A stretch of DNA of 64,000 nucleotides, from the IMG/VR virus record IMGVR_UViG_3300042914_001978; one strand, written 5' to 3'. The notes under the pieces were generated by a model. The model ran no database searches. It saw nothing but the letters and a program-made list of their open reading frames with translations, and was not told the origin of the DNA. The position numbers and the translations under genes were made by a program. Below are positions 11,943 through 17,336 of this stretch, one piece after another. How positions within the stretch are numbered: the first letter of the stretch is position 1; each line of letters begins with the position of its first letter. This DNA comes from an uncultured virus (IMG/VR IMGVR_UViG_3300042914_001978) (taxonomy: Duplodnaviria > Heunggongvirae > Uroviricota > Caudoviricetes).

Positions 11943-12138
11943 GCGGATTCCACACTTTATTGCGCGGTGCTGTCAGATTCCGCCAGTTATCAACAAGATT
12001 AAGCCAGCTAGTCTCCAGCGGGGCGTTCCATTCCTCTTCTGGTGGGAAGTTCCAAGGATAGGGTCGCGGATAAGAAGCGCAACCACTTGCAATAAGTAGT
12101 GCTAATCCTATCCCTGCTCTTTGAAGTCGTAAAACCAT
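11851..12138 (-). CDS. putative lipoprotein
   Basis: hydrophobic leader ending in lipobox-like IASG|C. Confidence 0.55.
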   Translation of the reverse strand: MVLRLQRAGIGLALLIASGCASYPRPYPWNFPPEEEWNAPLETSWLNLVDNWRNLTAPRNKVWNPLIREYEPDFGAEIELLKALPPDTEEHELYQ

Positions 12139-12755
12139 AGCTCCTCCTCGCTTTCACTAACCCACCTGCTGCCTGTATGCTCGCAGCTAAACTCTTGGCT
12201 GAAAACCTTCCAGTTGGGCTTGGTTGGGAATTTTTTAGCGATAAACGATCCGCCGTCCATCCATAACACACGGTTGTTGGGTTGGATGAAGTATTGCCCA
12301 TCTCCCGCAAACACATGGCCGCATTTGTGTCCAGCAGCCATCTCTCCATAGCCACTTGTGTAATGGGGACCAAGGCACCAATCCAAGGTAAACATATACT
12401 TGGCCTTCTCAAAGTTTTTGTTCTTGAGCATTATGTTCGCTGCCCGATTCTTGCAGTAGTCCAAGATGTTAACCGAACAGTAATAACTCATGGAATCCCA
12501 AAGTTGTATCCAATCCAGAGGGTAAAACGTGCCACCAATTTCCTCAGTGTGGAGATAGTGGATCGGAACTCTGGCATGCTGGCTTCCGTATTCTGTCATC
12601 ACGCTAAACAACCCGCAACGTTGAGGGATGGAGGTGAAGGCAAATACTTCGACTAGTTGTCTTTCCCTGCTGACGCTGGGTTCCAAATCGTAGAAAAATC
12701 CCTCGTCTACGAAAGCAAAGAAGGTTGGGATGTTGACGTTGAGATAGTTGCTCAT
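12108..12755 (-). CDS. conserved phage hypothetical protein
   Basis: 215 aa; YLNVNIP, QLWDS, YMFTLDW, HKCGH, QPNNRVLW motifs. Confidence 0.7.
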   Translation of the reverse strand: MSNYLNVNIPTFFAFVDEGFFYDLEPSVSRERQLVEVFAFTSIPQRCGLFSVMTEYGSQHARVPIHYLHTEEIGGTFYPLDWIQLWDSMSYYCSVNILDYCKNRAANIMLKNKNFEKAKYMFTLDWCLGPHYTSGYGEMAAGHKCGHVFAGDGQYFIQPNNRVLWMDGGSFIAKKFPTKPNWKVFSQEFSCEHTGSRWVSESEEELWFYDFKEQG

Positions 12756-16038: not shown

Positions 16039-16208
16039 CTGTTGGACGAGTCTATTCCAACATCAATCCCGTCCATCCAGATGTGTTTGAAATCTTGCTA
16101 CAGCAGAAAGAAAGGCAACTGGAGAAGGCCCGCCAAGCACTGATGATGTGCATCGCTCCCGACCCCGAAGCCGAAAAACTTAAAGAGGAAGTATTGCTTG
16201 AGCAATGA
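16035..16208 (+). CDS. hypothetical protein, 57 aa, not in ORF track
   Basis: ATGA-coupled at both ends. Confidence 0.55.
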   Translation: MTVGRVYSNINPVHPDVFEILLQQKERQLEKARQALMMCIAPDPEAEKLKEEVLLEQ

Positions 16209-16597
16209 AAGAAATCCCCGCAGGCTATGTGGAAGTAAGCAAAGGAGTCTATGAACGAAGAGACATCATCAAACAAAAGGCTAGTGCTAAGACTAAACGT
16301 AAAGCACCGCCTGCCGTCACTCAACCGCCTCTTTTCGATGAACCACTTTCAGAGGTTGAGGGAAAAGAGGGAGATCCAAGCCGCCTGCTTGTCTGCATTG
16401 AAAGCGTCCGAAAAAATCGACTCCTCGACACCGACAATCTCTATGGTGGTGCGAAATTTTATTGCGATTTTCTACGCTACTGTGGGGCAATCCCTGACGA
16501 TACCGAAGACCAGATCGAACTCAAAGTCACGCAAAGGAAAACGAAAAAGGGCGAAGAAGAAAAAACCATAATTGAAGTTTGGGACAGAAGCCAGTAG
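16205..16597 (+). CDS. rusA: RusA-like Holliday junction resolvase, catalytic part
   Basis: RLLDTDNL..K..CDFL..CGAIPDD acidic motif set. Confidence 0.7.
   Translation: MKEIPAGYVEVSKGVYERRDIIKQKASAKTKRKAPPAVTQPPLFDEPLSEVEGKEGDPSRLLVCIESVRKNRLLDTDNLYGGAKFYCDFLRYCGAIPDDTEDQIELKVTQRKTKKGEEEKTIIEVWDRSQ
16251..16571 (+). CDS. overlapping ORF carrying a RusA-like N-terminal strand/PSxN/helix
   Basis: RLVLRLNVKHRLPSLNRLF..; AAAGGAG at 16241-16247 precedes the ATG. Confidence 0.5.
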   Translation: MNEETSSNKRLVLRLNVKHRLPSLNRLFSMNHFQRLREKREIQAACLSALKASEKIDSSTPTISMVVRNFIAIFYATVGQSLTIPKTRSNSKSRKGKRKRAKKKKP

Positions 16598-16763
16598 TAT
16601 AGGGCAAATGAACCAGTCGCAATTCGATGCTGATCTAAAAGTCGCCTACGATGACACGGGGGTTCTGATGCCATTCCCAGAACAAGAAGAAGGTTTTTGC
16701 GACAACCCTATCAGAATGTTATTTGAACAAGTTGAGGAAGAAGATGTCCAAGAAGAGGAATAA

Positions 16764-17336
16764 ATGGATCAAGCAACGATCAACTTTTTGGGGCGGGCCA
16801 TCCTCAAATACCGAAAGTTCAAGTTAACTTTCGTTCCCCAAAAATATCTCATCACGGGCAAGGCCACCTCTGTCGGCTGGGCGGATGACAAAGAGCTTCG
16901 CATCGCCACAAAGCGCCCCGTGTCCACATGGCTTGATGTCTTTGTCCATGAAACCTGCCATCTCGACCAGCAGACCAAAAGACCCAAGTGGCACAAAAAT
17001 AAAGAAGACGCTCTTGGCAAGGTAGACGAATGGTTGGCTGGAAAACGTGTGGACTATGTGGACAAATATATCCGACTTGTTATTGAACTAGAGTGGGATT
17101 GCGAGATGAGGTCTGTTCGTAAGATTGCCAGAAACAAGCTGCCAGTGAATCTCAAGGAATACGCCCAGATGGCCAATGCCTACATCTTGGGCTACCATTG
17201 GATGTTCAACAATCGAAAGTGGTGTAAGAAGAGTTACGAGACCACAAGGATCTGGACGCAGATGCCCGAAAAAATCATCCCCCTAAAGACTGCATTATTT
17301 CCCCCTAGCAAACTTACCGATCCGTACTATGATTGA
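16764..17336 (+). CDS. putative zincin-like metallopeptidase
   Basis: VFVHETCH (HExxH) with later ELEWDCE. Confidence 0.55.
   Translation: MDQATINFLGRAILKYRKFKLTFVPQKYLITGKATSVGWADDKELRIATKRPVSTWLDVFVHETCHLDQQTKRPKWHKNKEDALGKVDEWLAGKRVDYVDKYIRLVIELEWDCEMRSVRKIARNKLPVNLKEYAQMANAYILGYHWMFNNRKWCKKSYETTRIWTQMPEKIIPLKTALFPPSKLTDPYYD

Follow-up and report, generated by a model that had tools for sequence, protein, structure and literature searches.

The stretch of DNA analysed here (the window) comprises 64,000 nucleotides of an uncultured lake phage of the Caudoviricetes (IMG/VR record IMGVR_UViG_3300042914_001978) and carries, on its plus strand, an open reading frame (ORF A) with a second one (ORF B) nested in the +1 frame relative to it (Table 1). 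In translation A reads ...SRLLVCIESVRKNRLLDTDNLYGGAKFYCDFLRYCGAIPDD and B reads ...LVLRLNVKHRLPSLNRLFSMNHFQRLREKREIQAACLSALKAS; residues S59-V68 of A (16379-16408) and I42-S53 of B (16374-16409) are encoded by shared bases in two frames, in agreement with the initial annotation, which had read the end of a helix and the strand SRLLVCIESV out of the same nucleotides. The neighbouring genes form a phage replication and nucleotide module, encoding a DnaB-like helicase, a DnaD-like initiator, an HNH endonuclease, a DNA-binding protein and a dCMP deaminase. An ORF on the minus strand within this module (12108-12755) matches the phage 'ferredoxin' PHROG phrog_3704 (E 3.7e-36). The small acidic ORF that follows A and B in the window is also found downstream of the gene in relatives and retrieved no match in a PHROG search. 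In two relatives (L063 and P0096) the B frame lacks a stop and continues into the downstream gene (MTRALLIQAYW...), and in two others (L055 and L058) it is the A frame that continues into it.

Table 1. Features of the locus in the window (positions are those of the whole stretch).
Feature	Position	Strand	Description
ORF A	16205..16597	+	130 aa; N-terminal motif, unselected linker, then RusA-like core (beta2-alpha2-beta3-beta4)
ORF B	16251..16571	+	106 aa; +1 frame relative to A; own AAAGGAG and ATG
Overlap of upstream ORF stop and A's ATG	16205-16208	+	ATGA
A N-terminal motif IPAGYVEVSKGVYER	16214..16258	+	AF2 beta-hairpin, pLDDT 64-68
B ribosome-binding site (AAAGGAG 16241-16247) and ATG (16251-16253)	16241..16253	+	inside A codons SKGVYE
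Selected part of B, residues 11-50	16281..16400	+	strand LVLRLNV, PSLN turn, helix HFQRLREKREIQAACLSAL
Doubly coding stretch	16382..16400	+	A R60-L-L-V-C-I65 (beta2 start); B A45-C-L-S-A-L50 (helix end)
B tail, residues 51-106	16401..16568	+	catalytic half misread in +1; stop-free
A catalytic motif region	16427..16501	+	D75-T-D77-N78, K84, D88, D98-D99
Downstream small acidic ORF MNQSQFDADLKV...	16608..16763	+	11 nt past A's stop, 37 nt past B's stop

The C-terminal part of A resembles RusA-type Holliday-junction resolvases. Residues 63-128 match the RusA-like PHROG 34 (E 4.8e-5) and PHROG 1682 (E 1.5e-4), and the AF2 model of A (21-row alignment, mean pLDDT 70.5) shows a weak hairpin at the N-terminus, then a disordered linker and, from residue 61, a confidently predicted core (strand 61-69, helix 76-92 and strands 104-112 and 120-126; pLDDT 78-89). 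The initial description of A as the catalytic part of RusA behind a disordered-looking N-terminus is upheld by these results. Comparison by hhalign paired A 57-126 with RusA 51-118 (31% identity, E 0.0027, probability 11%), aligning DTDNL, K84, D88 and D98-D99 of A with DLDNL, K76, D80 and D90-D91 of RusA. The catalytic residues of RusA (D70, D72, K76 and D91) have equivalents in A according to this pairing and to conservation in 21 homologues, where D75, K84, D88 and D99 never vary and D77 and N78 hardly do. One clade (L026, L030, L033, L036 and L037; 2/48 in the diverse set described below) reads DPCNA in place of DPDNL in the A frame, and this replacement of the second catalytic Asp by Cys and of the following Leu by Ala may denote an altered or inactive active site.

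Structural comparison with the RusA fold was limited to the C-terminal two thirds. VIA-align superimposed A 59-129 on E. coli RusA (1q8r_A 53-118; Z 4.3, rmsd 2.7, 64 residues aligned, 20% identity), RusA ranking second and tied with unrelated beta-alpha-beta-beta folds, including 4-OT/MIF-like ones (Z 4.4-3). A Foldseek search of the PDB with the A model gave nothing at E <0.5, and searching PDB sequences with the profiles of A and of B gave no RusA match. Pfam returned no family for A (E up to 10), and B gave three weak, unrelated matches only; no RusA match occurred among 37 B-type relatives at E up to 1. Since the alignments of A start at RusA residues 51 or 53, A possesses beta2 and lacks a counterpart of RusA 1-52, including the long helix.

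Ahead of its linker, A carries an N-terminal motif that is near-invariant among relatives of only 42-45% overall identity, and in columns 1-23 the third codon position is the most variable one in many columns (27 loci). A-type proteins of a wider family (for example L073, L081, P0245 and P0295) have a conserved (R)LFPNASKSF(I/L)xAN at their N-termini, as against PAGYVEVSKGVYER in the clade of the window.

The AF2 model of B (42 rows) contains helices 24-29 and 32-56, residues 21-50 being predicted with pLDDT 85-91, and the tail is a low-confidence helix. Residues 11-50 of B are presumed to be the counterpart of RusA residues 1-52. Their strand-P-x-x-P-S-x-N pattern resembles LPWPPSNN of RusA, and one B-type protein matches positions 26-74 of PHROG 1682 (E 0.02), just before the positions matched by A (81-140), a collinear but weak correspondence. 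Among 37 B-type proteins compared with this PHROG, three match at E <1, all at E 0.02 or worse, and the front half of B aligns to a narrow RusA profile with E 0.54. Complex prediction for A with the front half of B scored 0.57 (runs 0.57, 0.61 and 0.57; best of three controls 0.02), with contacts agreeing by at least 89% between runs and a partner pLDDT of at least 76. The mark used in this test is reached by 116 of 157 solved complexes and by 2 of 215 mismatches, of which only 18 solved complexes and both passing mismatches score 0.60 or less, these counts holding only roughly here given the custom alignments employed; the likeness of the pair to single-chain RusA may also drive the score. 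The prediction thus lends weak support to the formation of an A-B complex.

As had been noted from the sequence, B has a start of its own. The AAAGGAG lies 3 nt before the ATG, which is kept in 28/28 distinct nucleotide versions of this stretch in the clade of the window, the Shine-Dalgarno sequence being present in most of them. Both Tyr codons in the B start stretch are TAT in every version having Tyr, against 51% in the background, indicating strong conservation of the entire stretch. Within the wider family, an in-frame ATG precedes the strand in all but one of 48 sequences (the exception is L061), only 4-13 nt after the ATG of A in several of them, and most of these starts are devoid of a Shine-Dalgarno sequence. 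No hairpin masking the ribosome-binding site of B was predicted (16190-16290, z -0.54), and the consensus fold of the start region in 14 relatives had -0.63 kcal/mol and no compensatory pairs. A mini-ORF of three codons (ATG TGG AAG TAA, 16227-16238) lies in frame with B and terminates 2 nt ahead of the AAAGGAG; its ATG stems from the invariant TAT-G in GYV of A, and it is kept by most versions in the clade of the window.

The locus is present in many lake-water metagenomes. Contigs from three lake-water metagenome runs belonging to three studies, which extend from 16217, 16225 or 16226 to 16643 or 16652, show 0 differences and 0 gaps, with no indel listed. Homologues of A numbered 94 at E <=0.01 (98 candidates), with near full-length coverage in most. 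From the relatives, 66 viral loci were fetched and 34 of these examined; in 34/34 the +1 frame is open and encodes the strand, P-S-L-N, H-W and a helix ending in S-A-L, even where A identity is only 35-45%, and the +2 frame is full of stops. Also, in the window as in all 34 loci, the B frame is open over 95 codons or more. In a second set, consisting of 79 loci of the wider PSWN-type family, both frames are likewise present, and the A-frame motif occurs in 139 of the 146 records gathered. The nested ORF with its strand, PSLN turn and helix is therefore as the initial annotation described it. A single continuous ORF appeared neither in the metagenome contigs nor in the 34 loci, front part and core occupying separate frames both in the window and in all relatives that were examined. 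Given the indel-free contigs and the maintenance of both frames in relatives, the two-frame layout is not an error.

A profile of the front half of B (27 sequences) was compared with 1.84 billion representatives and retrieved 233 protein clusters at E <=0.001, 69 of them at <=1e-10. A motif scan of the 150 best matches found the C-half motifs absent from the same frame in 147, the exceptions being P0133, P0234 and P0242; P0133 and P0242 are deletion variants, and P0234 is considered below. Nearly all of 57 B-type proteins read by eye consist of the front half followed by a tail rich in S, T and K, that is, the misread catalytic half. Searches by tblastn of 50,697 GenBank phage records with A, an A-type protein of the wider family and a B-type protein gave no convincing match, and a B-profile search of bacterial genome contigs found no relatives.

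Some members of the family deviate from the common pattern. P0135 (249 aa) matches DNA methyltransferase PHROGs over its first 136 residues and ends in the front half of B plus tail, the B frame of this phage being open back into the adjoining methyltransferase gene. The B-type proteins P0127 and P0233 switch near their ends to the A-type beta3-beta4 reading (...IETRQKK..ERVEITV and ...VTQRKPEGGEAECTEVAITYP, respectively), which may reflect either assembly indels or natural variants. In three lake metagenomes, summed contig depth was 109-531 over the start region (16189-16269), which holds the N-terminal motif of A together with the Shine-Dalgarno sequence and ATG of B, versus 15-24 over the gene interior (16270-16620), and several contigs connect 16254 or 16259 to 16619-16665 through sequence of unknown nature. 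From this difference in depth and these connections, many co-occurring phage strains seem to share the flanks and to carry other versions of the gene.

Selection was assessed frame by frame by placing the codons of 27 diverse loci onto the alignment of A and recording the variability of each codon position. In columns 1-25 the third position of A is the most variable one, denoting selection on A; in columns 27-65 it is almost fixed and the first position of A, which is the third of B, varies most, denoting selection on B; and from column 69 onward the third position of A is again the most variable, denoting selection on A. The analysis was repeated with 48 segments of <90% nucleotide identity anchored on the first Asp of DxDN. 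In these, selection on B runs through its F-L-S-A-L to position -9, where Leu occurs in 47/48 (Leu50 of the window, 16398-16400). A is already selected at -14 (Arg in 40/48, Lys in 4), where the entropy of its third position is 1.64 bits and the two B residues overlapping it are variable (2.6-3.2 bits), at -7 (Ser in 40, through both TCN and AGY codons) and at -5 (Arg in 47 of the 48). The selected parts of A and B consequently overlap by about six codons (the doubly coding stretch of Table 1), Arg60 of A being preserved through synonymous codons.

Codon usage in the overlap bears the mark of both frames, with the reservation that the following counts treat related sequences as independent, adjacent synonymous sites varying freely. 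The B Leu codons at -9 and -12 are TTR in 47/47 and 32/33 cases, together 79/80 versus a background of 27%, and those further upstream in only 6/36; a CTN codon would place Pro, Ala, Thr or Ser in the strand of A. Similarly, the B Ser codon is TCC in 29 of 39 TCN codons (31% background), by which the Arg of A is kept, and B Phe is TTC in 39/44 (54% background). The shared bases are thus under purifying selection in both frames, as is expected of dual-coding genes.

The tail of B behaves differently from its front half. At the positions examined it shows no amino-acid conservation of its own, and its residues flip between T, I and M where A keeps Asp. When synonymous codons of A were resampled in the core, about two stops were expected in the +1 frame; the tail is nonetheless open in 25/27 sequences, against a mean simulated probability of 0.09. 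Also, it spans at least 51 codons in 46/48 (all but L009 and L059), the observed length being reached in simulation with a mean chance of 0.14, and the stop of B usually falls 3-14 codons ahead of that of A. The reverse test covered 21 of the 27 sequences, the six distant loci being out of register in the alignment of A; in 21/21 the A frame stays open over the selected part of B, with a chance of 0.05-0.42 in each.

These observations are best accounted for by a split RusA-like Holliday-junction resolvase made of two separately translated chains from overlapping frames, which is probably what the locus encodes. The two-chain reading derives from the selection on both frames in shared bases, the openness of both ORFs and the start proper to B. 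B would start at its own AAAGGAG and ATG and supply the front third of the fold (strand, PSLN turn and long helix). A, starting 46 nt upstream of B and coupled to the preceding gene, would read the DNA of B's front half in the -1 frame as a disordered linker and then supply beta2 and the catalytic alpha2-beta3-beta4 core with its DxDN, K, D and DD. Both chains would be translated and dock non-covalently, and would pair like the RusA dimer into an active enzyme that cuts junctions within the replication and recombination module of the phage. Of the two polypeptides assembling into one enzyme that the initial annotation had offered as one of its readings, the overlapping, separately started chains agree with the selection, the open ORFs and the B start, and their assembly is a conjecture towards which the complex prediction weakly points. 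Metatranscriptome coverage from one run was confined to 16632-16800, outside A and B.

Alternatively, B could be an independent small overprinted protein, for instance a regulator or a DNA binder, with A alone acting as a trimmed RusA-like nuclease. The front half of B has no significant sequence match to RusA, and the conserved N-terminal motif of A could replace the missing strand. However, A and B were found together at all loci examined in a very broad family, A by itself has nothing equivalent to the front part of RusA with its long helix, and B offers, in the order required, a strand, P-S-x-N and a helix, together with the collinear, if weak, PHROG 1682 match; the contrast between the complex score and its best control adds weak support on the same side. 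An unrelated B is therefore unlikely. Overprinted viral genes, a class reviewed in PMC3494269, also have both frames of one stretch encoding protein, yet one of the frames is there usually a new, unrelated protein, whereas the frames of the present locus appear to hold complementary parts of one old fold.

E. coli RusA itself (DLP12 prophage; PDB 1Q8R; Pfam PF05866) shares with the locus the succession of a strand, DxDN, K, D, DD and two strands, and the gene for A is also situated within a phage replication and recombination module. In contrast, RusA is one chain of 120 aa in one frame, while the front third is here in another frame, and bases for the end of the helix and the start of the strand are shared between frames. 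A has, in addition, its N-terminal motif and a 35-aa linker, and B has a 55-aa tail. In PHROG 1682 the stretches matched by A and by one B-type relative are consecutive in the profile, suggesting a single frame, whereas in the present gene they occupy overlapping DNA in two frames.

Programmed -1 frameshifting is known from genes of phages and bacteria such as dnaX, those of the tail chaperones G/GT and of the IS3 transposases, and the locus is like them in having two overlapping frames whose parts would jointly form one protein. Under this alternative, ribosomes starting in B would shift by -1 into A and make a fused RusA-like chain, perhaps beside plain A. The shift would need to fall between Leu50 of B and Arg69 of A (16401-16408), and the selected frame does change from B to A within about three codons. 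Unlike in the known cases, the junction shows a B-frame slippery heptamer (X XXY YYZ) in 0/48 diverse sequences (a weak tetramer only in 10/48), its bases are not conserved, there is no stimulatory RNA structure downstream (the folding of 16402-16490 is no stronger than that of shuffled sequences, z -0.29), selection on both frames spans the junction, and the zero frame continues for about 55 codons rather than stopping. Moreover, a fusion within 16401-16408 would lose residues 60-65 of A, which are selected in the A frame and align with beta2 of RusA, and one at GAA-AAG would lose residues 40-50 of B, so that any single-shift fusion forfeits either the end of the helix or strand beta2, both of which are under selection. 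Neither the open tail of B nor the open linker of A would be required by such a shift. Two particular sites were rejected. The shift near GAA-AAG (16362-16367) put forward in the initial annotation is not supported, B-frame selection extending 11 codons beyond a site that is itself unconserved, and the A6 run at 16411-16416, a candidate for ribosomal or transcriptional slippage, lies after the invariant Arg69 codon of A and is absent from relatives.

One protein, P0234 (100 aa), is an exact fusion of B to A (...AAFLFALS followed by ARRRRLLD..DNL), just as recoding would produce. It is, however, a singleton on one contig with other indel-like oddities, and the protein closest to it, P0281 (front halves 90% identical), has two frames, for which reasons P0234 is probably an assembly error. 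In the PRFect study, 'RusA/RuvC' is listed among the genes with predicted shifts in actinophages (PMC10274946), which also speaks for recoding. Weighed together, this evidence makes a recoded fusion rather improbable. A single chain could also arise by two programmed shifts, from the A motif by +1 to the front half of B and by -1 back to the A core, in keeping with the A, B, A order of the selected blocks; B having its own Shine-Dalgarno sequence and ATG, neither switch having a conserved shifty site, the selected parts overlapping and neither long open frame being needed, this is very improbable. Finally, a frameshift mutation or an assembly error would yield overlapping ORFs with halves of one fold, but identical, indel-free contigs in three runs and purifying selection on each part across hundreds of clusters leave a broken gene hardly credible.

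The split-enzyme model does not by itself explain the open and unselected tail of 55 codons in B. For a tail that is nearly always open, one guess is a tether that lets the chains assemble during translation, another a coupling with the gene downstream. In the former case, A and B would be an obligate two-chain RusA, and the tail would tether the front half to a ribosome on the same mRNA until the catalytic half is made by a ribosome in the other frame. This elaboration of the two-chain enzyme is unlikely; if true, it would represent co-translational assembly in cis and a gene architecture selected for assembly, not for sequence.

Full-text searches of a collection of papers retrieved no description of a two-frame RusA architecture. 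Dividing a small one-domain nuclease between two overlapping frames that share about six doubly selected codons would be an uncommon means of encoding an enzyme, and hundreds of phage lineages have conserved this architecture. Only one of the two ORFs is reported by gene callers, and it receives no Pfam assignment, and the few source names seen are 'hypothetical protein', suggesting that a widespread phage resolvase is being missed. The locus also provides a natural test case for the limits that dual coding sets on codon choice, for the assembly of split enzymes and for why an unselected frame stays open, questions that are accessible with simple expression constructs.
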